Made by a program: the position numbers and the translations under genes. A stretch of DNA of 64,000 nucleotides from sequence record NZ_CP023526.1; one strand, written 5' to 3'. The DNA is from a plasmid. Shown here in pieces: positions 3,390 through 53,600 of this stretch. Position 1 is the stretch's first letter; every line of letters begins with the position of its first letter. The notes below the pieces were generated by a model, which ran no database searches, was not told the DNA's origin, and worked only from the letters and a program-made list of their open reading frames with translations.

Positions 3390-6098
3390 TTAAAATGAGT
3401 ACTTAATGCCCACCATGGTCGCCGTGTTGCTGTAGCCTTTGTCTCCCAGTTGCTGCCCCACGTTACCCCACAGCGCTGTCTGACGGCTCAACTGCCCTTC
3501 CACACCGAGTTTTACTTCCCCGACATTGACAGCCCCGGCCTGCTCCAGCGATACGCCATTCATCACCACGCCATTACGCTTCGTGTTATGCAGCCAGTTG
3601 ACTTCCACGAACGGCTGGAAATTTCGGTCTTTTCCGCTATCCATCTGATTATGCCCCCGCAGGAAAGCCCTGGCACCCAGGCGGGTCTGGACGTTGTTCT
3701 CGCCCTCAGCGCTTACCCTCGTGCCGTTCGCCTCGGTCACATCACCGGACTTCACCCCCATCCAGGTCACCTGAGCCTGGGGCTCAATAAAGTACGCTGT
3801 ACGGTTAGCCTGTGGCCCGGACTCCCCCAGCGCGAAGGTGTAGCCGGTCTCCACGGACGCCGTCAGCCCTTTTGATTTGTAGCTCTCCTCGCTGATGCCC
3901 TCGCCGTTGACGTGATTGTTAAACCAGCTGTACATCAGTTGGCCATCCACCCAGGCGCCGGTGTCAGCCTGGTCATTCTGATACCAGGTGCCGTACATGC
4001 CCACACTGTAACCGTCCACTGAGCCCTTTGAACCATGGCCGGATACCGTGGAATGGGTGTTGTTGTGGTTATTACCATAGCCCGCCATTACGCCAAGATG
4101 AAAGCGGTCCCGGTCATTGCTGCTCCACTGGGTCAGATCCCCCCCCAGTTGGGCGACGTATGTATTGCCTGTGGTACGCAACTGGCCGGAGCCGTCGTGG
4201 AACTGATTGTGCACCCCCACCTGACGCAGCCAGAGACTGGATACGCTGCCGTCAGTGTTGAGGGTATTCATATAACGGTTTTCACCGGCACGGTCGTGCA
4301 GGGTGGTCAGGAACATGGAAGAGGCCGCCTGGTTGGCGATGTAAGAGCCCGCTTCAGGCCGGACAACGTGAATAACCGGTTTGGGGGGAACAGGTGGCAC
4401 TGGCCCCGGTGAAAGCCGGCTGTCCAGATACCAGCTGTTGCCGTGTGCGTTCAGGGTGTAATCGTAGGCCCCGGCGACGATACGCCCCTGCTGTTTAAAT
4501 GCGCCCGCAGCAGATGTCCCGTCCACCTCGATGAGTTTAATCCCGTCAAGGGTCTGTGCCCCGGTGCCCCCGGCGTTGGTGACAGAGACATTCGTCGTCC
4601 CGGCGGCATTGCCTTTCACCACCAGCTTGTCGGTGAGCGAACTGTCCCCGGCCAGCGCGCTGTTGAACAGCAGTGCACCGCCGTTGCCGGTATAGTTGCC
4701 ATTGACCGTCAGCGTATTCCCGACGCCGCCGTTGTTAAGGGCGATGGTCCCACTGTTCGACACATTTCCCGTGATACTGGAATTGCCCGTGAGCGTGGCC
4801 TGACCGCCGGCCTGCGTCGTCAGCGACGTCAGTCCGGTAAAGGTCCCGGTCCAGCTCCCGGCATTGCCCAGTGTCAGGCTGGTGTTACCGCCGGTATTGA
4901 CCAGATCACCGGCAATATCAGCGTTATTCACGGTGACTGCGGTGGTGCTCCCCGCGTCGGTCTGCAGCGCGCTCTGCCCTGCACCGGCCAGCAGTCTGGT
5001 GGCTTTGCCCGACAGGTTAATCACCGCCCGAGTGTTCTGTTGTACCCAGATGGCAGCCTTTGTATCGGACTGGATGGTGGAATTGTTCACATTCAGGGTG
5101 CTGGTTCCCGTTCCCGGACTGGTGCCCGTCGGATCCGCATCGAATACGGCCCCGTAACCATCCGCATGAACGCTGGAGTTATTAACGTTCATCACCGGGT
5201 GGCTGGCATTGCTGGCGACAAGACCCAGCCCTGTATTTTTCAGTCCCGCCTTTACCTGGAGTGTGGTATCAGACAGGGTCAGGGTTGGCGCTTCACCCGA
5301 CACCTTATCCCCGCCGTAGATAATGGCGCCAAAGGCATCAAAATCCTGCAGGGCTCCGACACCCGTCCCCGCCGCCCGGGTATTAGTGACGGTGATGGAA
5401 CTGCCGGATACGGTCAGTTGTGCGTTGCCGACCGCCGTCACGCCGCCTCCGGCAGCCACAATACTTCCTCCGGTTAGCGTAGCTCTCGAGTTGTCCTGTA
5501 TGGCAATCCCTTCCATCCCCGACGTAATGGTTGACCCGTTCAGGTCCGCGGACGAATTGTCGAACAGCCATACCGCAGTCTGCTCACTGTTGCCGGCTAT
5601 CACCGTCCGGCTGGTAGCGCTCACGTGGCTCTGGTCATGCAGGATGAGGACCCCGGTGGAGTCGGGAGGGGTGAACACAGGGTGGCCGCTGCCTACCGTC
5701 ACATTATCGAGCGCAATGGAAGCCTGACCCGACGCAAGTAAATCAGTGAATGCGGCCGGCCCCCCCCCGGTTGTGCCAATATTTGCGGCGGAGGTCCCAC
5801 GGATGAGAAGCTGTCCTGCCATACTGGCCCCACCTTCCATCATCAGGCTACCGCCGGACATAGAAATCGACGGGGGAGAAATACCGTCACCGCCCAGGTG
5901 CAGGCTCTGCTTCAGGAGAAGATTGCCTCCCGTCATTTCGACGGTATCCCCTGAATGGTCCACGGTGCCATCCAGTTGGGTTGTATCGCCCGGTGATACA
6001 CTGATGGTTGCACCTGACGCTTCAGGGAATATAAGCGTGCTGGCAAGACCCATTGTAATAATGGCCAATGCCGTTGGTTTAAATGGAATGAGCACCAT
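3390..6098 (-). CDS. Autotransporter (type Va) adhesin-like protein of AIDA-I/Ag43 type, with a beta-helical passenger, a proline-rich linker and a C-terminal beta-barrel
   Basis: The N-terminal signal peptide is MVLIPFKPTALAIITMGLASTLIFPEA. The passenger is Gly/Thr/Asn-rich and repetitive. A PVPPVPPKP linker is present. The C-terminal ~300 aa has alternating hydrophobic beta-strands and ends GIKYSF (aromatic terminal residue typical of OM barrels). The ORF-track start at 6134 is a GTG; the ATG at 6098 has GGAG upstream. Confidence 0.88.
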   Translation of the reverse strand: MVLIPFKPTALAIITMGLASTLIFPEASGATISVSPGDTTQLDGTVDHSGDTVEMTGGNLLLKQSLHLGGDGISPPSISMSGGSLMMEGGASMAGQLLIRGTSAANIGTTGGGPAAFTDLLASGQASIALDNVTVGSGHPVFTPPDSTGVLILHDQSHVSATSRTVIAGNSEQTAVWLFDNSSADLNGSTITSGMEGIAIQDNSRATLTGGSIVAAGGGVTAVGNAQLTVSGSSITVTNTRAAGTGVGALQDFDAFGAIIYGGDKVSGEAPTLTLSDTTLQVKAGLKNTGLGLVASNASHPVMNVNNSSVHADGYGAVFDADPTGTSPGTGTSTLNVNNSTIQSDTKAAIWVQQNTRAVINLSGKATRLLAGAGQSALQTDAGSTTAVTVNNADIAGDLVNTGGNTSLTLGNAGSWTGTFTGLTSLTTQAGGQATLTGNSSITGNVSNSGTIALNNGGVGNTLTVNGNYTGNGGALLFNSALAGDSSLTDKLVVKGNAAGTTNVSVTNAGGTGAQTLDGIKLIEVDGTSAAGAFKQQGRIVAGAYDYTLNAHGNSWYLDSRLSPGPVPPVPPKPVIHVVRPEAGSYIANQAASSMFLTTLHDRAGENRYMNTLNTDGSVSSLWLRQVGVHNQFHDGSGQLRTTGNTYVAQLGGDLTQWSSNDRDRFHLGVMAGYGNNHNNTHSTVSGHGSKGSVDGYSVGMYGTWYQNDQADTGAWVDGQLMYSWFNNHVNGEGISEESYKSKGLTASVETGYTFALGESGPQANRTAYFIEPQAQVTWMGVKSGDVTEANGTRVSAEGENNVQTRLGARAFLRGHNQMDSGKDRNFQPFVEVNWLHNTKRNGVVMNGVSLEQAGAVNVGEVKLGVEGQLSRQTALWGNVGQQLGDKGYSNTATMVGIKYSF

Positions 6099-6273
6099 AA
6101 TATTATCTCCGGTAGTAGAGGCGTAGCCATTCACATGTCATAAAGTATCCAGACTGTTTTCTGACTGCAGTTGTGGGCAAGGAAGATAGCGTTAAAAAAA
6201 ATACGCGCTATATTATTTCCAGATTGTAGCTTATTTTTCGGACACTTCTCTCGGGGGCGGAAGCCAGAATGAA

Positions 6274-44824: not shown

Positions 44825-46050
44825 TCAGTCTTCAAGTGATTTCTCCTTCACGATGTCCCGTTCAGCCTGGTTCATCCGGGCTGCGGACGGCGGGTCTGTC
44901 TCCGTCCCGCGCTCCTCCAGCTGCCGTTCAGCCTGTTTGTCCTGTGACAGGCGGGAGACCGAAGCTATATCCCGGTCCAGGCGCTGCTGCGCCGTCCTCT
45001 GCTCCCGTGAAAGGATGGCCGCCAGGGCTGCCACCTCGGTATCCTGGCCACCCATCTCATCCTTCAGCAGAGTAAACACCCTGTCCAACGTCGCCGGATC
45101 GGTCTTCTCCGTTTGCGGCATATTTTCTATCAGGAGGGCCGCCAGTTTCTCTGCCTCCCGCTTCGCCACCGCTTCCAGGTCCTGAAGCACCGGGATAACC
45201 GCCGTTTCGGGCGTGCTCGCCCTCACGGCCTGAGCTGACACTGCTGCCTCGTCGATAAGGTTATCCGCCCCGGTGAGCCGACTAAGGTTGTGCGGCAGGT
45301 CATCCCCTTCCAGACGCACAATCACCCCGCTGGCCGGATAGTCGCGGGCAAGTTCCAGCCCCGCAGGCAGGCTGTCGGCCACCCGCACCTCGCCGTTGCG
45401 GCTCTGCTGAATGCCGGCAAAGCGCGCATCCTCCCGACCGGTGACCCGGTGCGCCCCGGAGAACGCCTGTCCGCCGTGCTCATCCTGGGTGAGACTGAAT
45501 ATCACCATCCCCGCCCGGTTGCCGTTGGTGTCCCACAGCGCAAACCCCACGCCCGGCTCTGGCTGACGACGGGTGGCAGGGACAAACACGCCCTGCGATA
45601 CCCCCTGCGCCAGCCCGTGGCTTTTCAGCAGGGCGCGCCCGGCCGCGACGCGGTCCAGCGGTTTTGCCCAGGACAGGATACCCTCCGCCGCCCGGGCGGC
45701 GTGGTCCTCGCTCTCCTTCAGGTAGTCATGCGCCGTCCCGTCGCCTTTGTGCTTCGCCAGTTCGGCCAGCCAGCCCTCCCGGTTGTCCGTCTATAGGTGG
45801 CGATGGCGACCACCACCTCCCCAATCAGCAGCCACTTCATCAGGGAGGAGTCCTGCCCGAAGGTGCCCTTCACCGCGTCATCCCCGACCTTGAGCAGGTC
45901 TTTGGTTGCCCCGGCAAACGCTGCATGCTGCAGCACCAGGAACAGCGCGCAGGCCAGCAGGGCCATCACCAGAACGTGCGCCACCTCCCGGCGGAACACC
46001 TTTTGTTTCACGGCGGAGAAAGCGCCGCGATGACTCAGTACCACTTCCAT
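44825..46050 (-). pseudogene. Frameshifted gene for a membrane-anchored, Ala/Glu-rich protein of unknown function (two ORFs 45718-46050 and 44825-45800 in different frames)
   Basis: The upstream ORF has a TM helix (VAHVLVMALLACALFLVL). The downstream reading frame stays open upstream of its first ATG to a TAG near 45790 (TDNREGWLAELAKHKGDGTAHDYLKESEDH...), so both pieces look like one gene broken by a +1/-1 shift. Very GC-rich. Confidence 0.45.
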
Positions 46051-46131
46051 TATTGAATCCTTCTGAAACAGTGAGTTAAAACAACGTTGTTACAGCGGAC
46101 CGGGTAACCTGCCCGCTGTAAAAATGGTGTC

Positions 46132-46314
46132 TCAGGGGCGCCGTAAACCGGCCTTACCCGACGGGCACCTCGCCCGATGCTGCTCTATCTGCACCAGGAG
46201 GTCCGCGATATCGCAACTGCGGGCGAGCGCATCCCGGCACAGACGCTGGTAGCGCAGCTTCAGCGCCGAGAGGGCAATCACCGGTTCACGCCAGTGTTTT
46301 ATTTCCGGGGACAT
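46132..46314 (-). CDS. Small hypothetical protein (60 aa, MSPEIKHWREPVIALSALKLRYQRLCRDALARSCDIADLLVQIEQHRARCPSGKAGLRRP) preceded by the conserved leader repeat
   Basis: GGAGG lies 6 nt upstream of the ATG at 46314. The ORF-track version is extended upstream into the leader. Confidence 0.45.
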   Translation of the reverse strand: MSPEIKHWREPVIALSALKLRYQRLCRDALARSCDIADLLVQIEQHRARCPSGKAGLRRP

Positions 46315-46374
46315 ACGAACCTCCAGTGAAAATAAGCCGGGAGAGAAAGCCAAAATAAGAGAGAAGCCCCGCCG

Positions 46375-46500
46375 GGAAACAGGCATGCTACCGCCCCAGG
46401 GTGTCACACCTGTCGTGGGGCAGAGATGCCCCGACGGGGTTCGGGCAAAGGGAAGCCCGCCGCTTTTTCGGGAATAAAAAAGCGGGTAATGCAAAAACAC
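46375..46500 (-). promoter_or_regulatory. Conserved ~100-bp upstream leader/regulatory repeat, copy 1 (core ACGACAGGTGTGACACCCTGGGGCGGTAGCATG)
   Basis: Shared with 48368-48480 (also ...GAAAAA.C.GGCGGG.TTCC.TTTGCC.AAA...CGTCGG...). Both copies sit directly 5' of small minus-strand regulator-like genes. Confidence 0.5.
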
Positions 46501-47017
46501 GTTTTTGGGGACGGACTGCGACCGGCGTCAGCTTGTCGTGCCGACCGGGCTGAACACTACAGCGTCAGAATGTCTTGTGGATCACCAGTCAGCACAGGGA
46601 TGGTCTTCAGGCTGTGGTAGAGTCGAAGTTGCGCCTCAGCAGTGCGGGTACGTCCGGCCTTCTTCGGGCCAGCGTCAGCAGATCGCTGGCGGGCCGCATC
46701 AGCAGAATGCGGGTACTCACCGGGTTATTGGCCGGGTGCTCTGGATCGTTGATGGGTGTGGTCATAAACATTTCTCCTGGTTAGGTGGAGAAATTCTTTC
46801 ATAAAAAAACTCTTTTTTTACTTGGGCACCTGCCCAATGTGAATTTATACAGTGTTTTCTATCCCTTTAAATTAAAAGAAATTATGCCTTTTTCATAAAT
46901 GAAGATATATTTTCTATTAATTATGTTTTTGATAAATATCAATTTCTAGATCGCGGCCATCACCATAAATATCTTGATTACTACAATATGGTGGGGAACA
47001 TCCCCACCATATTGTTC

Positions 47018-47758
47018 CTATCCAAGAGGCAATAGTGTGGGCTCAGAAACAAACTGCTCAGGAATGATATTAAGCCAGCCATAGTGCCTGGAAAAGTGTA
47101 AGAGATCCTCTCTGTCAGAGAGATTAAGCTTCAGGTAGATACTACGAAGGCATTGCTCTATCGCCTGTTTGGATACTTTCATGTATTCAGCAATCCACCG
47201 GTTGGACCTGCCTGCGGCTGTTAGCCAGGCGACGACCCATTCCTTCCTTGTCAAAACAGACGCAGGTGACACCCCGGTGAATCTGCCGGAATCAATAATA
47301 TTGAGGGGGGCCTTTTTTAGTTCCGGAATAACGACCGGCAACCAGTCAACAGATTGTTCGAGGGAGGAGAGCTCCGTAAGGAAAATCAGGGTACATTTAT
47401 TCCCTTCAAGCAGAAGGGGAACCAGTCTGACGATGAATGACGTAACACCATTGATGTCATTGAAATATCCCCATGAGAAAAGAAGCGTCTCTTTCCCGGA
47501 CGCCATCGTTCGTTTTTCAAATTCATGCATCAGACTGATGTTATGCGCTGGGGCAGCAAAAACTTCCAGATCGGTCATTCCGGCAACGGAAATCACTCGG
47601 GGTAAAAAACGGGCTGAAAACGCAAGACTGGTATCCATCAAATAATGATCTGCGGATTTTATGTACCATATCCCACTGAAATTTTTATAAAAATCATAAA
47701 AATCATGATGAAATCCTTGTGATCCGGCGGTGAGATCCATAGGATCGAGAGTAGCCAT
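47018..47758 (-). CDS. LuxR-family transcriptional regulator (N-terminal ligand/sensor-like domain + C-terminal GerE-type HTH), ~247 aa
   Basis: C-terminal HTH LTRKEWVVAWLTAAGRSNRWIAEYMKVSKQAIEQCLRSIYLKLNL. AGGAGG precedes the ATG at 47758. Confidence 0.7.
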   Translation of the reverse strand: MATLDPMDLTAGSQGFHHDFYDFYKNFSGIWYIKSADHYLMDTSLAFSARFLPRVISVAGMTDLEVFAAPAHNISLMHEFEKRTMASGKETLLFSWGYFNDINGVTSFIVRLVPLLLEGNKCTLIFLTELSSLEQSVDWLPVVIPELKKAPLNIIDSGRFTGVSPASVLTRKEWVVAWLTAAGRSNRWIAEYMKVSKQAIEQCLRSIYLKLNLSDREDLLHFSRHYGWLNIIPEQFVSEPTLLPLG

Positions 47759-48016
47759 AACCATCCTCCTTAAACTGAGTGGTTTTTGGTTAGCTCGTAT
47801 GATGGGGGTCCAGCCCATCATACGAGCGCAACATGATATTTTGAGGCAGCATTATTTCGTGCTGCCCGGTCACTTTATCACAGCGATAAGATACCGCCAG
47901 GGTTATTTCTGTCCGTTGAATACTCATGTATTCCCCCCAGAATCATGCAGGTGCAGCGTTTATTTACTGCAGGCCTTGAATCGTTTATAGGCGTTGAATA
48001 ACCGTGCCCGGTAACC

Positions 48017-48322
48017 TTATTGAATAAGAGCCTGTACCAGGATCAGGTTATAAAAGCCTTTCCTGTAACAAACTGAAATAACTTCATTGTAATTTCGTAC
48101 ACCGAAAGCGATTATTAGTTCGCGCAGACAGCGATTGATCTCTCGGCCATGCAGGCCGGTCATTTCAGTCACACCGGAACGTGAAAATCCTTTCAGAAAG
48201 AAAAAGAGCACTCTCGCCTGCTCATCACTCAGGTGGTAGCCAGGATAATATGCCGTCGGCATCATCATTTTCTCTACCACCACGTCATCACGGATAAGCT
48301 CACACATTTCTTTGTAATTCAT
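48017..48322 (-). CDS. Small single-domain LuxR/GerE-type HTH regulator (101 aa)
   Basis: LSDEQARVLFFFLKGFSRSGVTEMTGLHGREINRCLRELIIAFGV fits the GerE HTH pattern. Preceded by leader-repeat copy 2. Confidence 0.6.
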   Translation of the reverse strand: MNYKEMCELIRDDVVVEKMMMPTAYYPGYHLSDEQARVLFFFLKGFSRSGVTEMTGLHGREINRCLRELIIAFGVRNYNEVISVCYRKGFYNLILVQALIQ

Positions 48323-48367
48323 GTCCTGCTCTCTGCATTACTTCCCGTTCAGCCGGGAAAGGATTAT

Positions 48368-48480
48368 TTAAAAAAAAGACATGCTACCGCCCCAGGGTGT
48401 CACACCTGTCGTGGTCCGCTGTGGGACCGACGTTTTTGGCAAAAGGAAACCCGCCGGATTTTTCGGTAAAGAAAAATTCA
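48368..48480 (-). promoter_or_regulatory. Conserved upstream leader/regulatory repeat, copy 2
   Basis: See copy 1 at 46375-46500. Confidence 0.5.
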
Positions 48481-48730
48481 GGTAACACAAAATATATTTT
48501 CAGCACCAAATTCATCGTGATGATGAATATTTTTGCATCTCTTTGAAATTAAGACTTATCGCTATTTTTCTCTCCGCTCTCAAAAGAGGGCGAAATATAC
48601 CCCTTAATTTCCCGTCAAGTAAATTGATCTACATCAATAAACTACACTGAGTGTACTGGACAACAATTTTTAAATGTGATTGGCGAAAAAAGTGTAGCCA
48701 GGTACACTTTTGGAAATGAGGTCGGACCAG

Positions 48731-49096
48731 ATGAAAGAAAACACCCACCCTGCTATCGAAGCACTCAGGGAAGAAATCCATCATCAGGGACTGACATATG
48801 AAGACATTGCGCGACAAGCACCAATGTCCCTTAACCACCTTAAAAACCTGATGAGTGGCCGCACCCGACTGCGTGTTGAAGACAGGGATGCTATCTGCCG
48901 GGCGATGAACGTCGATCCACAGGATATCTTCCTGCAACGAAAGGACTATATAGAAAACCTCTACTTCATTGATATCCGACACCTTCCGCCAGATTTGCAG
49001 GATGCCATCAGGATGATCATCGGCGACCTCACGCTGCATGCCAGACTGCTGGAGATGCATACGAAAAGGCGAAAGCGGCGCGCTATAAAGAAGTAA
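48731..49096 (+). CDS. XRE-family (Cro/C1-type) HTH DNA-binding protein, ~121 aa
   Basis: HTH LTYEDIARQAPMSLNHLKNLMSGRTRLRVEDRDAICRAMNV. GAGG lies 9 nt upstream of the ATG at 48731. The overlapping minus-strand ORF 48629-49261 has no recognisable features. Confidence 0.6.
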   Translation: MKENTHPAIEALREEIHHQGLTYEDIARQAPMSLNHLKNLMSGRTRLRVEDRDAICRAMNVDPQDIFLQRKDYIENLYFIDIRHLPPDLQDAIRMIIGDLTLHARLLEMHTKRRKRRAIKK

Positions 49097-49453
49097 TTTC
49101 CGGATACAGATGAGGGAAGCATGCCAGTGGAGGTGACTTTCTGCACGCTGGCACGCTCTGCCATTCTGGCGGCGACCAGCCGCGGAGGTCAGTTTCTCCA
49201 GGTAAATGACCTGCTTTTTCGGTAAGAAACCAACGAAATCAGAGGACAGAGAAGAAGCCATTCATTTACCCGCCCATGACCGGGTCATTGCCCGATCCAT
49301 AGCAAAACAGTAAAGTATACTACTCCATACCCTTATGACCTTTTAATGCTGATTAAAGGGCCATAAGACGCCTACATCCATCCCATTTAATCACGACAAA
49401 TGAGCATTTAAATGCACCATTCTGTATATTATACTATATAGAGAAATACTATA

Positions 49454-50110
49454 ATGCAAGAGAAGCACAATCTGATACCTCGCGATGAGGGTATGTCATT
49501 GAATAACATCGGTAAAAACCTTACCCACTTAATGCAACTGAAGGGGATCGACTCACAACAACTCAGTGACCGGATCGGGGTCGGCATCGCGACGATTAAA
49601 AATTTAAGAAGAGGCGTGGGCAACCCAACGATTTCAACCCTGCTGTCTATTGCAGATTTTTTCAATGTCAGCATCGGCGCACTAACCGATCAACTGCTGG
49701 ATGGCGATAAAACCATCAGCGCTAACAACGCCCGGGTTCTGCCACTGATAAAGTTTAATGAAACAGAAGCGTTCCTGGAAAAGAAGGTACTGCACACTGA
49801 CACTTACACAACCGAAGTAGATAATGAGGAGGATGATTCTCTCTTTGTCGTTGAAATAACCAGCAGGGTCCTCCAGCCAGAACTGGACAGAGGAACCCTC
49901 TGTGTTATATCCAGAACGGAAGAATATTATGACGGAGACATCGTTCTTCTGAAGATCAAGGACTATCCACTCTGTTTTCGCCGTATCTTCATCGGGAATG
50001 ATGGATATCAATTTTGTAATATCTCCATGGGAACCGAAATGGATATGAAACAATATACTGATTTTAAGATAATCGGCGTGATGTTAAAAAAAATAAACAG
50101 GTTGAGATAA
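49454..50110 (+). CDS. Phage-repressor-like protein: N-terminal XRE HTH + C-terminal LexA/S24-like domain lacking a clear Ser-Lys dyad
   Basis: HTH LNNIGKNLTHLMQLKGIDSQQLSDRIGVGIATIKNLRRG. C-terminal beta-rich domain VVEITSRVLQPELDRGTLCVIS..YDGDIVLLKI with no GDSM motif. Its stop abuts the next start (TAAATG). Confidence 0.6.
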   Translation: MQEKHNLIPRDEGMSLNNIGKNLTHLMQLKGIDSQQLSDRIGVGIATIKNLRRGVGNPTISTLLSIADFFNVSIGALTDQLLDGDKTISANNARVLPLIKFNETEAFLEKKVLHTDTYTTEVDNEEDDSLFVVEITSRVLQPELDRGTLCVISRTEEYYDGDIVLLKIKDYPLCFRRIFIGNDGYQFCNISMGTEMDMKQYTDFKIIGVMLKKINRLR

Positions 50111-50608
50111 ATGAAAATACTTTCAACCCTGAAGAGGTTGATTATTGATCTGTATACACCTGCATACAGCTATACTCTTGAAAGAAATAATCAGGGCGCA
50201 GAAAAGGATGTCTGGATTTTCAAAGAGTACGGGACACACTCTTTTGTAAAAAAGAGCTGGAAGCAACTCCAGGAAAGCAATTTTCTTCAGCAGGTCAATC
50301 CTAAAGACATTGCCTATATAGCAGAAGCCGAGGCAGAAAAAAAACTTGAAGAATCAAAGATGTATATAACTGAGGAGAAACGAAACAGAGTATGGGTGCT
50401 AAAAAGCTCCCAGGAAAAGCTGTCTGTCACGGGTGATGAATTTATCAATAATCCTGAACTCATTGATAAAACAGAGAGCGCTGATGCTACCCGGATAGCT
50501 TTTCATACCGGATTAAAAAAGGGGCTGCTCATTTCAGCGACTCTGCATACAGGTCAACCGGAAAAACCCCAAACAAAAGGAGGCGGAAGACTGACAATCG
50601 TTAAATGA
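50111..50608 (+). CDS. Hypothetical protein (165 aa), translationally coupled to the repressor-like gene
   Basis: The ATG immediately follows the upstream stop. No recognisable motifs. Confidence 0.45.
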   Translation: MKILSTLKRLIIDLYTPAYSYTLERNNQGAEKDVWIFKEYGTHSFVKKSWKQLQESNFLQQVNPKDIAYIAEAEAEKKLEESKMYITEEKRNRVWVLKSSQEKLSVTGDEFINNPELIDKTESADATRIAFHTGLKKGLLISATLHTGQPEKPQTKGGGRLTIVK

Positions 50609-51338
50609 TAAAGGTTTTAATAACGGGCCTGTCGGCCAGTGATATGACAGAGAATCCGCTATTCTCAACAATTTTCACACTTGTTGCCCCGTTTTCCCAC
50701 TGATGACAGACTGCAGGGGAAACCGATAATAAAATGTCTCCCGTTTTGCGTTGAAAAAGTGTATGCGCATGGCCGGAACCAATAAACCTGACGCCGTTTC
50801 TTCGACAAACGCTCAAAAGTTCGTGACCATTTAACAGCAAACACTCATCAACCAAAGGCGTACCAACGGGTAGCAGGTGATGATGCAAAAAAACAGCCGT
50901 CTTTCTGTCTGAATCACTCAGCTGACTTTCAAGTTGATTGAGTTCCTGAGGTGAAATAAGGCCATAGTCGTCCCCCTTCACTACGCTGTTAACGAACAAA
51001 ATGCGCCATTGGCTGTCGGAAAGCTGGAAAGCATCAACATTATTGATGCCCCCGTGTTGTTGATGTGCCAGTAAGACATGTTCAGCACTATCATGGTTTC
51101 CCAAAAGATAAGCATAAGGAATATCGAGCAATTCCATTTTGCTAAAAAAATAGCGATACGACTCAACACTGCCATCATGGCTGATATCGCCGCTGACGAC
51201 AATCCCGTCAACATTTAGCAGATCGCGATGCGATATGATGTATGAAACAACCGAGTCAAAAGACGCCCGGTTTTTAATCGCCGCAGCAGATGAGGTATCA
51301 GAAAAAAGATGAATATCTGTGAGCTGTAAAATACGCAT
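50601..51338 (-). CDS. Calcineurin-like metallophosphoesterase of the CpdA/Icc 3',5'-cyclic-nucleotide phosphodiesterase type (245 aa)
   Basis: Motifs in the CpdA order: MRILQLTDIHLF, VVSGDISHDG, LLGNHD, AVFLHHHLLPVG, GSGHAHT. Alignment to E. coli CpdA recalled from memory. AT-rich. Confidence 0.75.
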   Translation of the reverse strand: MRILQLTDIHLFSDTSSAAAIKNRASFDSVVSYIISHRDLLNVDGIVVSGDISHDGSVESYRYFFSKMELLDIPYAYLLGNHDSAEHVLLAHQQHGGINNVDAFQLSDSQWRILFVNSVVKGDDYGLISPQELNQLESQLSDSDRKTAVFLHHHLLPVGTPLVDECLLLNGHELLSVCRRNGVRFIGSGHAHTLFQRKTGDILLSVSPAVCHQWENGATSVKIVENSGFSVISLADRPVIKTFII

Positions 51339-51339
51339 A

Positions 51340-52038
51340 TCAACCTTCCTTTGTTTTTCTCAGCCATAAAATGGGATTATACGATTCACCCCAGTCAAAA
51401 TGATCTGTTTTTTCTATGCGTTTAACAAACGCAGCGAGTATGATAGCCAGCGGTAAAAGCACAATAGAAATGATAACCTTGTAACTCCATGTTGTAAGGA
51501 TAATATTTATTAGCTCATAAAATTTATATTTACCTGATAAGCTTATCGGATACGCAGTCAGCAGCAACGCCCCTTGAGTAATAACAGCACCCAATGTGTA
51601 TCTGATGAAAAACAGTTTCCCCGAAAACAGCATTTTCATTTTTGAGATAAAAATACCGTTAATAAAATATGATACTGGCACAGAGATCCAGGTACCGATC
51701 ATCACACGCCAGAAATCATGATACATGAGATAATATCGCCGGGAAATTTCATTATAATCCATCTGAATAATTGATGACAGATTGAGAGCAACAACGTAAA
51801 ACGTCTGACATATAACCATGATCCATATAGAACGCACTGATAATTTATAGCCATACACCTCGGTCAATATCGTAGATATTAAGAAGCATAACGAAAAAAT
51901 GACACCACTTGCCGTGATCTTAAGGTCATACACAGAGTACACCTTATAAACAAGTGTGTCGCAGGTTATCATTATTGTAACAAGCAACCCGACAAAAAAA
52001 CCATAGAGTTTAAAATCATTATTCATGTCAGCACCCAA
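51340..52038 (-). CDS. DUF165/YhhQ-family (VUT-type) membrane transporter, putative queuosine-precursor transporter homolog (232 aa)
   Basis: Multi-TM protein with YhhQ-like motifs (DLKITASGVIFSLCFLISTILTEVYG; WSYKVIISIVLLPLAIILAAFVKR). Its stop is 1 bp before the PDE gene start (operon). Confidence 0.65.
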   Translation of the reverse strand: MGADMNNDFKLYGFFVGLLVTIMITCDTLVYKVYSVYDLKITASGVIFSLCFLISTILTEVYGYKLSVRSIWIMVICQTFYVVALNLSSIIQMDYNEISRRYYLMYHDFWRVMIGTWISVPVSYFINGIFISKMKMLFSGKLFFIRYTLGAVITQGALLLTAYPISLSGKYKFYELINIILTTWSYKVIISIVLLPLAIILAAFVKRIEKTDHFDWGESYNPILWLRKTKEG

Positions 52039-52302
52039 CCAATAAACGAACTCCAGAAATCTGGTACGTTGCTATGAGGTCATTCACTTCGCACCAACCA
52101 GAGCAGATACATCCTCCTTTTATGCAGGGGGTGCATGTTATGTCTGTGTGCTAAAGCGAAAGCGTATACCCTCAATAAAATGCAGGTCGGGAAAATTTAT
52201 TGCAAGAATTAGGGTTATTAACGACTGTTATTTAAGAGAATTCTTCTGTGCAAACTTTAATTTCAAAGAATACACTTTAAAATCTTGTTGTTAAAAAAAT
52301 CA

Positions 52303-52704
52303 TCAGCCTTCAGCATCAAAAATCCGATCCAATTGCTCAGCTGAGTTTCGCCGTATTTCAGCCCTGATAGATTCAAACTGATATTCCCCACGGGATTTCA
52401 CCTCATCAATTTCGCCAACCATACGGAGGAGCATCGTCGATGCATAGCTGGTTTTCAGCATATAATCCATCAGTATCCGGTTAAAATCAGCCTGCCCTGC
52501 GTCGTTATCGGTTCTGTTTTCTTCGCCCTCAGCTTCTCTTTTCTTTTGAGCCGAATAAACACGAAGGCCAAGATCAAGAAGCATCCCGCACACCGATGAA
52601 ATATTTGCCTGGCTGACATCAGCTCCGTCATTTCTTTTTTCGTCCACTATCTGACGAACCCGCTCATAATTATTTTTATCAATGTAGACCTGTGCTCTTG
52701 GCAT
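52303..52704 (-). CDS. traM: F-like conjugative relaxosome protein TraM (133 aa)
   Basis: Clear similarity to F TraM: VYIDKNNYERVRQIVDEKRNDGADVSQANISSVCGMLLDLGLRVYSAQ vs F VNLYISNDAYEKINAIIEKRRQEGAREKDVSFSATASMLLELGLRVHEAQ. A C-terminal tetramerisation-like region is also present. Confidence 0.8.
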   Translation of the reverse strand: MPRAQVYIDKNNYERVRQIVDEKRNDGADVSQANISSVCGMLLDLGLRVYSAQKKREAEGEENRTDNDAGQADFNRILMDYMLKTSYASTMLLRMVGEIDEVKSRGEYQFESIRAEIRRNSAEQLDRIFDAEG

Positions 52705-52719
52705 GCTCTCAGCTCTCTT

Positions 52720-53000
52720 ATCTGCGCTATTTCAACGTCCGTTTACCGGTTAAAAAATGGTCTAACTCTGACACCAAAATCAGACTCTATGTCACAATTT
52801 AGCATAGAGTCTGATTTAGAGTCTAGTTACAAAACACACAATAAATTAGAGTCTAAATCAGACTATGCAATAGAGTCTGATTCAGACTCTAGTCATTATA
52901 ATTATATGTTTTTATTGCGATAGTCTGATTAGAGTCGCCAGAAGACTCTAACCAGACTCTGTTGAGGACTCCAATTAGAGTCTGATTTATTGCAAAATGC
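52720..53000 (-). promoter_or_regulatory. F-like oriT / TraM-binding-site region with multiple direct and inverted AGAGTCTGAtt / TCAGACTCT repeats
   Basis: At least 10 copies of the AGAGTCTGA core (GANTC-containing) in both orientations within ~260 bp immediately upstream of traM, as in F-like sbmA-C/oriT regions. Confidence 0.6.
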
Positions 53001-53600
53001 GTTAAGTGAACACTAATGCTTCAATATAACTTATTGTTTTAAAAGCATCTTGCAGGATTTTCAAATCCTGCGTCAGGTGTGGTAATTATCAGATCAATGA
53101 GCTGGGTCTTAAAATACCATCGTCACCTGTCTCGTTTGTGCCAGAATAATGGCGGGAATATGCCCTATCTGTATGACTTTAGTCCCTAAAATTATTAATA
53201 AAGTTAGCTGCTCATTCGCAATTGCCATTCAGCATATAAACACTAAAGCTTATCTGAAGACCCACGAAATGATATCTCGAATAATCTGATATTTCTCATT
53301 CATGTTTATATCAATGCGTTGTTAGGGAATCATTCATCCCCCGTTGTGACAAGCGTATTATCTGCCAAACTAATAATGTCGATATGTGGCCATATTTTAC
53401 AATGATGCAATAACCTGCATTTCCGCATGAAGCCGATCCCATCATAGAGGATACATAGAGATTGGAAGGTATTTTTGGGTGTTTTGGCTCAGTCCTGACA
53501 ACGGTGACCCTGCGGATGACACCACGAAATTGATAACTTATGTGGAATCCAGACCGGGTCACAACAGCACATTTTTTGACCTACACAGACAGTTATATTT

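Follow-up and report, generated by a model that had tools for sequence, protein, structure and literature searches.

A predicted F-type transfer origin and its traM gene at one end of a degenerate transfer region in a Cedecea neteri replicon

What does an F-like origin of transfer (oriT) do beside an intact traM gene when the rest of the transfer operon does not follow? The question is raised by positions 52303-53000 of a 64,000-nucleotide stretch of a plasmid-labelled sequence record, NZ_CP023526.1 (the whole stretch is called the window below). A first, sequence-only reading took this locus for an orphan F-like oriT-traM unit in a chromosome, open to mobilization by a resident F-like plasmid, or alternatively for a scar of plasmid integration. 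Here, we follow the locus through its relatives and conclude that it is very probably the oriT-traM end of a degenerate F-type transfer region (MOBF/MPF-F; MPF, mating-pair formation) in which the origin and TraM are intact, and that it could be mobilized in trans.

The transfer origin and its TraM

The gene at the center of this locus, traM (52303-52704, minus strand), is intact and encodes a relaxosome accessory protein of 133 residues, in which a ribbon-helix-helix at the N-terminus is joined to a tetramerization domain at the C-terminus. The protein matches the Pfam family Tra_M (PF05261) at E 1.2e-36 (125.9 bits against a cut-off of 27.7) and covers positions 1-122 of the 124 in the profile, so that its initial identification as a genuine TraM homolog holds at near full length. 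NCBI annotation already names it TraM, and with the NCBIfam TraM equivalog model it reaches 101.8 bits, about 2 bits under the cut-off of 104. Its closest solved structure is the TraM of pED208 (3on0; residues 1-129 aligned), with an E-value of only 2e-11 that indicates a distant relationship. The base-contacting positions on strand beta-1 of the ribbon-helix-helix are nonetheless retained: the N-terminus reads MPRAQVYI in the window and MPKIQTYV in pED208, which aligns R3/Q5/Y7 to K3/Q5/Y7, with Q5 and Y7 the same and K3 replaced by R3.

Upstream of traM, and overlapping its promoter region, 52764-52990 is densely filled by units of the form AGAGTCTGA or TCAGACTCT, which carry GANTC motifs (GAGTC, GACTC or GATTC) in three clusters (about 52778-52825, 52844-52891 and 52920-52989). 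Nine of the window's 15 matches to AGAGTCTGA (at most one mismatch) lie within the 206 bp of 52780-52985, and a 21-nt unit, TAGAGTCTGATTCAGACTCTA, is present four times. The repeat array of about 260 bp that had been likened to TraM sbm sites is thus real: the 261 bp of 52740-53000 contain 12 GANTC motifs against 0.73 expected from their density in the window (Poisson P 3e-11), and the maximum in any other 260-bp stretch of the window is 5. Spacings between the motifs are 6, 11, 12 and 24 bp, and the run GAGTC-T-GATTC-A-GACTC at 52873-52889 places neighboring motifs 6 bp apart and alternate motifs 12 bp apart. In pED208, alternate GANTC motifs are likewise spaced by 12 bp, and TraM reads them through Lys3, Gln5 and Tyr7 of its N-terminal beta-strand (Wong et al., PMC3159463); the TraM sites of F have the different form A(G/C)CG(G/C)T (PMC3159463). 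The locus therefore resembles pED208 (F0lac) in its TraM fold family, its GANTC element and the 6-bp neighbor/12-bp alternate phasing of that element, but has its motif clusters in a different number and arrangement, and the binding of TraM to the window's motifs is a prediction from their sequence. We consider the repeats to be predicted TraM-type (sbm-like) sites.

Repeats of about 21 nt, some direct and some inverted, that lie between genes in AT-rich DNA could also be iterons of a plasmid replication origin, but this alternative is extremely improbable. No Rep gene lies next to the array, IncFII RepA queries (from E. pyrifoliae and from L025, a relative taken up below) have no match in the window, and the GANTC core has the 6/12-bp phasing of pED208 sbmA. 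Moreover, every relative has its repeats at the corresponding location, between nic and traM. We reject the iteron reading, which the sequence-only reading had named as what might overturn it, because a Rep gene is lacking and the repeats are homologous to the TraM-site regions of the relatives.

On the far side of the array the plus strand reads GCAGGATTT-TC-AAATCCTGC-GTCAGGTGT-GGT (53052-53083). The inverted repeat GCAGGATTT-TC-AAATCCTGC (53052-53071, plus strand), with arms of 9 and 9 nt, is the predicted relaxase-binding hairpin of the origin. It is followed by the nic region GTCAGGTGT|GGTAATT (53072-53087, plus strand), in which the nick sequence GGTGT|GGT lies 9 nt past the inverted repeat; the predicted nick, 53080|53081, takes its position from F. 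The combined inverted-repeat and nic pattern is single in the window and has no occurrence in shuffled sequences, and the hairpin folds as single-stranded DNA at -8.5 kcal/mol (z -3.7), better than all 200 shuffles. A recognizable and conserved nic site, which the sequence-only reading had called for, is thus present. The accompanying search for integration host factor (IHF) sites yielded one conserved IHF-like site, AAACAATAAGTTA (53027-53039, minus strand), 13 nt from the inverted repeat and with one mismatch to WATCAANNNNTTR; with so loose a consensus, the match is not significant by itself (80 matches occur in the window, where 62 are expected). Alignments of related origins show the block AAA.AAT.AGTTAT at this site to be invariant. 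No TraY site could be defined at the window's oriT.

Conservation among relatives supports these assignments. We aligned eleven origins: the window, six from the Cedecea lineage (L005, L006, L013, L015, L016 and L017) and four from Erwiniaceae (E. tracheiphila, E. pyrifoliae, Rosenbergiella and Ca. Pantoea bathycoeliae). The inverted repeat is invariant or nearly so in all of them, and the core ACCACACCTGA(C/T)GCAGGA is kept across all eleven, with a C-to-T change in L017 as the sole difference. In the neighboring array, GANTC motifs stand at homologous positions with diverged spacers, and the indels amount to gain or loss of whole GANTC units. An exact 21-mer of the core, AAATCCTGCGTCAGGTGTGGT, occurs in only four species-representative genomes, all of them in F-like plasmids or contigs of Erwiniaceae. 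Megablast of the locus against PLSDB and E. coli genomes found no close relatives; the sole PLSDB match is the 65-bp oriT core, just upstream of traM in E. tracheiphila plasmids. Across these 65 bp the nic/inverted-repeat core is 88% identical to those of Erwinia/Pantoea plasmids (E. pyrifoliae NZ_CP104746.1, 40 kb; E. tracheiphila pETR004-a NZ_CP089946.1), which also carry GANTC sites and in which, as in the window, traJ does not adjoin traM. The same 21-mer and a TraI fragment occur in the 25-kb plasmid p1 of Pantoea stewartii (L009, NZ_CP046559.1), which has no traM within 900 nt of the core and is probably another decayed member of the family.

The overall architecture is that of the F origin (NC_002483), with nic, inverted repeat, A/T-rich IHF region, TraM sites and traM in the same order. 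F reads GCAAAAAC-TT-GTTTTTGC-GTGGGGTGT-GGT, with the same 9-nt spacing to GGTGT|GGT, and 10 of its 12 nic-region bases are identical to those of the window. In both, traM is antisense on the nicked strand (the plus strand in the window) and lies 5' of the nick, at 376 bp from the predicted nick in the window and about 320 bp in F. The differences are two bases 5' of the nick (GTCAGGTGT in the window, GTGGGGTGT in F), the sequences of the inverted-repeat arms, the form of the TraM sites (A(G/C)CG(G/C)T in F, GANTC here) and the genes that follow traM, which in F are directly traJ and traY. The two differing nic bases fall in what we take to be the stretch that distinguishes the TraI specificities of F and R100. 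By its sequence the locus belongs to the F-like MOBF origin/TraM family, and with hairpin, nic, IHF-like site and three GANTC clusters its cis-acting origin looks complete.

The origin also resembles a recombination or module boundary, since the leading regions of close relatives that share it are unrelated to one another. Blastn homology of L013, L014, L015, L017 and L018 to the window stops at 53151-53154, about 70 bp beyond the nick, which marks 53088-53154 as the distal end of the conserved oriT module, and the L006 contig terminates exactly at the nick sequence (L006 position 1). L017 carries ArdA, PsiB, PsiA and a methylase in its leading region. On the corresponding side of the window, beyond the LysR gene (53601-54518) that had been correctly noted as the upstream neighbor, an ArdC-type anti-restriction gene (ArdcN and zincin domains; 61784-62779, minus strand; 331 residues) is found some 9 kb away from the predicted nick. 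The strand predicted to be transferred is the template strand of this gene, as expected for a gene expressed early from a leading region.

The remains of a transfer region

Relatives that retain the rest of the transfer region show what the window's locus once adjoined. We traced sister loci from proteins 92-98.5% identical to the window's TraM; of the four used most here, L013 comes from an assembly named Enterobacter asburiae, and L015, L017 and L006 from sequencing runs and JGI samples. Their TraM proteins are 94-98.5% identical to that of the window, and they are collinear with it from oriT to traA at 86-89% DNA identity (86.5% for L017 over 53154-45792). In L013 and L015, traM is followed by Vut_1, a phosphoesterase, a 165-aa protein, a helix-turn-helix (HTH)/S24 repressor and traA-traL-traE-traK-traB...traV-traC, with no LuxR-type gene called in either locus. 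L017 has the fuller order traM, Vut_1, phosphoesterase, 165-aa protein, HTH/S24 repressor, HTH protein, 101-aa protein, LuxR-type regulator, a 69-aa protein (TraY), an 84-aa protein and traA-traL-traE-traK-traB, where the locus as fetched ends. In L006 the block next to traM is shortened, and the LuxR-type gene and the genes from traA to traV follow it; L005 and L006 carry different deletions of the Vut_1/phosphoesterase block. These sister plasmids thus differ from the window in having intact traY and traA followed by traL, traE, traK and traB, on to traV (L006) or traC (L013, L015).

The window keeps the first part of this order. Downstream of traM, as originally described, lie a Vut_1/YhhQ-like membrane protein gene (51340-52026, minus strand; Pfam Vut_1 E 3.7e-20), co-directional with traM and 95% identical to the gene at the same position in L017, and a CpdA-like metallophosphoesterase gene (50601-51338, minus strand; Pfam Metallophos E 1.6e-14), which is kept in L013, L015 and L017 and whose product scores 124.6 bits against the NCBIfam cAMP phosphodiesterase model, under its cut-off. 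They are followed by a regulatory block (48017-50608) that encodes the 165-aa protein (50111-50608, plus strand), a LexA-like HTH/S24 repressor (49454-50110, plus strand), an HTH protein (48731-49096, plus strand) and the 101-aa protein (48017-48322, minus strand), with Pfam matches in the block; its genes are 91-96% identical to their collinear counterparts in L017. Next comes a LuxR/GerE-type regulator gene (47018-47764, minus strand; Pfam GerE E 1.4e-8), which occupies the traJ position ahead of traY-traA and shares 73% identity with the gene that precedes traY-traA-traL in L017; going by this gene order, the regulator may play a TraJ-like role. In E. pyrifoliae the block between traM and traA instead holds an HTH regulator and a NusG-like protein, where the window has Vut_1, the phosphoesterase, the LexA-like repressor and the LuxR-type regulator.

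Two ideas about the genes next to traM lose ground in light of these relatives. We considered the Vut_1/phosphoesterase pair, which the sequence-only reading had noted downstream of traM in the absence of traJ, as an insertion that displaced traJ, and rejected this idea: the pair follows traM in relatives with intact tra operons, and is therefore a normal part of the transfer region in this lineage. The whole block between traM and the traJ-position regulator (48017-52026) is kept in such relatives (L013, L015, L017). Alternatively, TraM could have been retained as a transcription factor for Vut_1 and the phosphoesterase gene, since the three genes are co-directional and linked in all relatives and a promoter-like site lies just past traM. 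This role is very unlikely, because the same linkage is found where tra is intact, so that no new role is needed, and the 276-bp gap between traM and Vut_1 holds no GANTC cluster. A PADLOC scan of the block from traM to the LuxR-type gene gave weak HTH matches only, and an Rfam search of 44-54 kb for FinP, a traJ leader and a preQ1 riboswitch upstream of the YhhQ-like gene returned only spurious miRNA matches on palindromes.

Beyond the regulator the transfer genes are broken. The traY pseudogene (46560-46765, minus strand) has a 1-nt deletion near 46666: it aligns in two frames with a 1-nt gap against L017 and L006, and its 69-aa orthologue in L017 scores 22.7 bits against the Pfam TraY cut-off of 21.3. 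The independent NCTC 12120 assembly has the same deletion. The pilin gene traA (45784-46050, minus strand; Pfam TraA positions 1-95 of 118) is truncated after about codon 86-89, and at this junction begins a traI 3' remnant (44828-45805, minus strand) that covers residues 1425-1737 or so, about the last 320 codons, and matches Pfam TraI_C without relaxase or helicase core. Tblastn with E. pyrifoliae TraI over 44828-45805 gives 50% identity (E 1e-73), and the L025 TraI_C is 80% identical. The homology of sister loci, L006, L013 and L017 among them, to the window stops at 45792, inside traA, and the traI frame, interrupted at the junction, starts a few bases past 45792 behind a stop codon. From this coincidence we infer a single deletion that took traL through most of traI.

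The far end of the remnant is defined by L025, in which traI is followed by a DUF3811-like gene, ScsC/DsbA, PLD, copB and the IncFII repA. The window has the first two of these, a DUF3811-like gene (44317-44604, minus strand) and a ScsC/DsbA-like gene (43396-44238, minus strand), both Pfam matches that follow traI in the lineage, and is collinear with L025 at 83% as far as 43329, where the F-like backbone ends and a Tn3-family remnant abuts; PLD, copB and the IncFII repA are absent from the window. With this collinearity ending at 43329 and sister homology at 53151-53154, the remnant measures 9.8 kb (43329-53154), apparently all that survives of an F-like backbone in this Cedecea neteri replicon, which is annotated as a 254-kb plasmid. 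The unit is therefore no orphan but one end of this remnant, together with the traJ-position LuxR-type regulator and what is left of traY, traA and traI. That it lacks traJ, traY and the rest of the operon is right for its immediate neighbors and wrong beyond them, with the remnants 4.5-8 kb further on. The same holds for the proposed scar, the closest of the first suggestions to the truth: the locus is a decayed plasmid backbone within a larger replicon, though not a scar of chromosomal integration.

Nothing else of a transfer apparatus was detected in the window. Tblastn with the full E. pyrifoliae protein set matched TraM, TraA residues 1-84 (46050-45793), TraI 1425-1737, a DUF2913 protein and a second traI relic of 39 residues (about residues 530-568; 58715-58831, minus strand; 54% identity, E 1e-6), and found no TraI relaxase domain, no TraD and none of the MPF-F genes (traL, E, K, B, V, C, W, U, N, F, H, G) within the 64 kb; tblastx with the sister loci found no further tra genes there. 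The E. pyrifoliae plasmid itself has a full MPF-F set, TraD and TraI. Since relaxase, coupling-protein and pilus genes were sought in the window and not found, the locus is outside the class of self-transmissible F-type systems. The 39-residue relic, from the TraI helicase region, has stop codons on both flanks and sits on the leading side of oriT beside an IS3-family remnant, a position that points to scrambling of an old backbone mediated by insertion sequences (IS). Decay of the tra region appears to recur in this lineage, as L014 has a separate internal deletion (15001-17905) that joins traL directly to traN-traF.

The two ends of the remnant differ in GC content (39% at the AT-rich traM end, 63% in the traA/traI remnant), and we considered whether they derive from two different plasmids. 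We rejected this possibility: TraM and the traI remnant share the same best plasmid relatives, in Erwinia and Pantoea, and the two ends are collinear with L017 and L025 respectively, which argues for one backbone. The nearest described TraM proteins are those of Erwinia/Pantoea IncFII-related plasmids, at 50% identity, and the TraI C-terminus is 45-46% identical to theirs. Thus, by homology, the backbone is assigned to a lineage of F-like plasmids of Cedecea and Enterobacter; of the plasmids described so far, compact conjugative ones of the IncFII-related kind, from Erwinia and Pantoea, stand closest to this lineage.

Replicon, mobilization and fate of the module

These observations suggest a model for how the locus arose and how it may act. 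One deletion joined traA at about codon 86-89 to traI at about codon 1425 and took away the pilus and secretion genes, TraD and, from TraI itself, the relaxase and helicase portions; traY is frameshifted, and the IncFII replicon that follows traI in relatives has been lost. The surviving TraM would bind the GANTC sites and repress its own promoter. Self-transfer of the replicon through this system would be impossible, but a sister plasmid could supply TraI, TraY, TraD and the pilus, upon which the plus strand would be nicked at 53080|53081. Given the F-type geometry at nic, the side from 53081 upward would lead, so that the LysR...ArdC side would be transferred first and traM last. Mobilization in trans is the plausible mode for a window without relaxase domain, coupling protein or pilus gene, and mobilization by a sister plasmid in particular is plausible because the nic core is identical, the TraM proteins are 94-98.5% identical and such plasmids exist in Cedecea and Enterobacter.

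Several observations weigh against this reading, and the first of them concern the replicon. The draft genome of NCTC 12120 holds the region, at 99.95% identity, within a 721-kb contig (UAVU01000009.1) whose gene calls include TraA and TraI_C about 6.5 kb beyond traM, and the window is flanked, just outside one end, by an aryl-polyene-type lipid cluster with Wzz and, just outside the opposite end, by a MacB/OEP efflux system. Both could favor the sequence-only reading's view of an oriT-traM unit in a chromosome, from which a resident F-like plasmid could drive high-frequency-recombination (Hfr)-like transfer of the island: the 721-kb contig carries the region without duplicated copies, aryl-polyene-type clusters and MacB-type efflux systems are often chromosomal, and the 64-kb window has no relaxase domain, no type IV secretion gene and no replication gene. 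Yet the window's proteins are identical to Cedecea neteri ATF95416-ATF95449, which come from a 254,496-bp record labelled as a plasmid, no housekeeping genes are present in the window, and the unit is contiguous with the traY, traA and traI remnants and hence not an orphan. A chromosomal location is accordingly improbable, and the first description as chromosomal is not supported by this comparison, with the caveat of the 721-kb draft contig. That contig leaves the replicon status not beyond doubt, but the balance favors a plasmid. Logan contigs of run SRR5872854 are 100% identical to the window.

The genes that the window holds are accessory only: IS66, IS110 and IS3 elements, an RHS protein, an autotransporter, an M12 peptidase, VirK, a lytic polysaccharide monooxygenase (LPMO) and an OspG-like kinase fragment. 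GC content is mosaic, at 37-68% across this virulence-style cargo, which lies throughout on the minus strand and comprises an RHS-repeat protein of 1939 residues (18109-23928), a pertactin-type autotransporter (3390-6134), an M12 metallopeptidase (26548-28395), a VirK/DUF535 protein (34316-35359), the OspG-like kinase fragment (39308-39811) and an LPMO_10 protein (557-1150). The window also contains three copies (186-398, 24936-25246 and 40528-40794) of a repeat of about 300 bp, which recurs in the sisters L013 (3690-4026) and L014.

The remaining points against mobilization concern helper, origin and timing. A search for a full-length TraI of the lineage, which would have pointed to a helper in the same strain, returned fragments only, and the absence of TraY in cis may matter for mobilization. 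Four bases 3' of the predicted nick, the window and L005 carry an A where sister origins have a G (GGTGT|GGTA versus GGTG). Finally, pairwise dN/dS (the ratio of nonsynonymous to synonymous substitution) of traM within the lineage is 0.02-0.10, which points to strong purifying selection on TraM across the lineage, but this low ratio is not assignable to the period after the deletion, and retention of traM may reflect a recent deletion. Constraint on traM since the deletion cannot be demonstrated, because the nearest deleted copies, L003 and L004, are virtually identical to the window.

These last points also bear on an alternative in which the locus is a dead relic, with origin and traM intact only through the recency of the deletion, no present function and a replicon that cannot be mobilized. 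Its case is built on the frameshift in traY and the truncation of traA and traI, the difference from sister origins near nic, the undated selection on traM and the traI remnant, which is stop-free over about 320 codons and so suggests a young deletion. Conversely, all recognizable cis elements are kept, and whole GANTC units, not scrambled ones, are gained or lost through indels in the origin. In addition, although dS is 0.57, just 2 of 133 residues separate the window's TraM from its counterpart in L017, where tra is intact. We regard the relic reading as rather unlikely, although it deserves serious weight, and favor a degenerate transfer region whose origin and TraM could still serve mobilization in trans. 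A bolder extension of the favored reading is that the oriT-traM module has been kept by selection as a hitch-hiker riding sister F-like plasmids, and that the block from traM to the regulator feeds into the control of transfer, or into establishment, in a way not described before; this is speculative, and we think it unlikely.

A precedent for mobilization in trans comes from Klebsiella, in which oriT-bearing, non-conjugative pLVPK-like virulence plasmids are mobilized by IncF helpers (PMC8299605). The parallel is close in that these, too, are large accessory plasmids that have kept an F-type oriT without a working transfer apparatus and need a co-resident F-like helper (PMC8299605). The present replicon differs in lineage and host and in keeping traM as well, and its mobilization is predicted. 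Because the pattern has already been shown for Klebsiella virulence plasmids, our locus adds an example rather than a principle. New here are a description of how the origin is built, the limits of the deletion, and an F-like lineage whose gene block between traM and traA is unusual; otherwise this is an ordinary case. Its wider value is small, and lies in defining a little-described F-like lineage with pED208-type GANTC TraM sites and its own nic-site allele. Typing tools would score the replicon of about 254 kb as non-conjugative; if its origin works, this replicon and its virulence-style cargo would be movable between Enterobacterales by a related helper plasmid.

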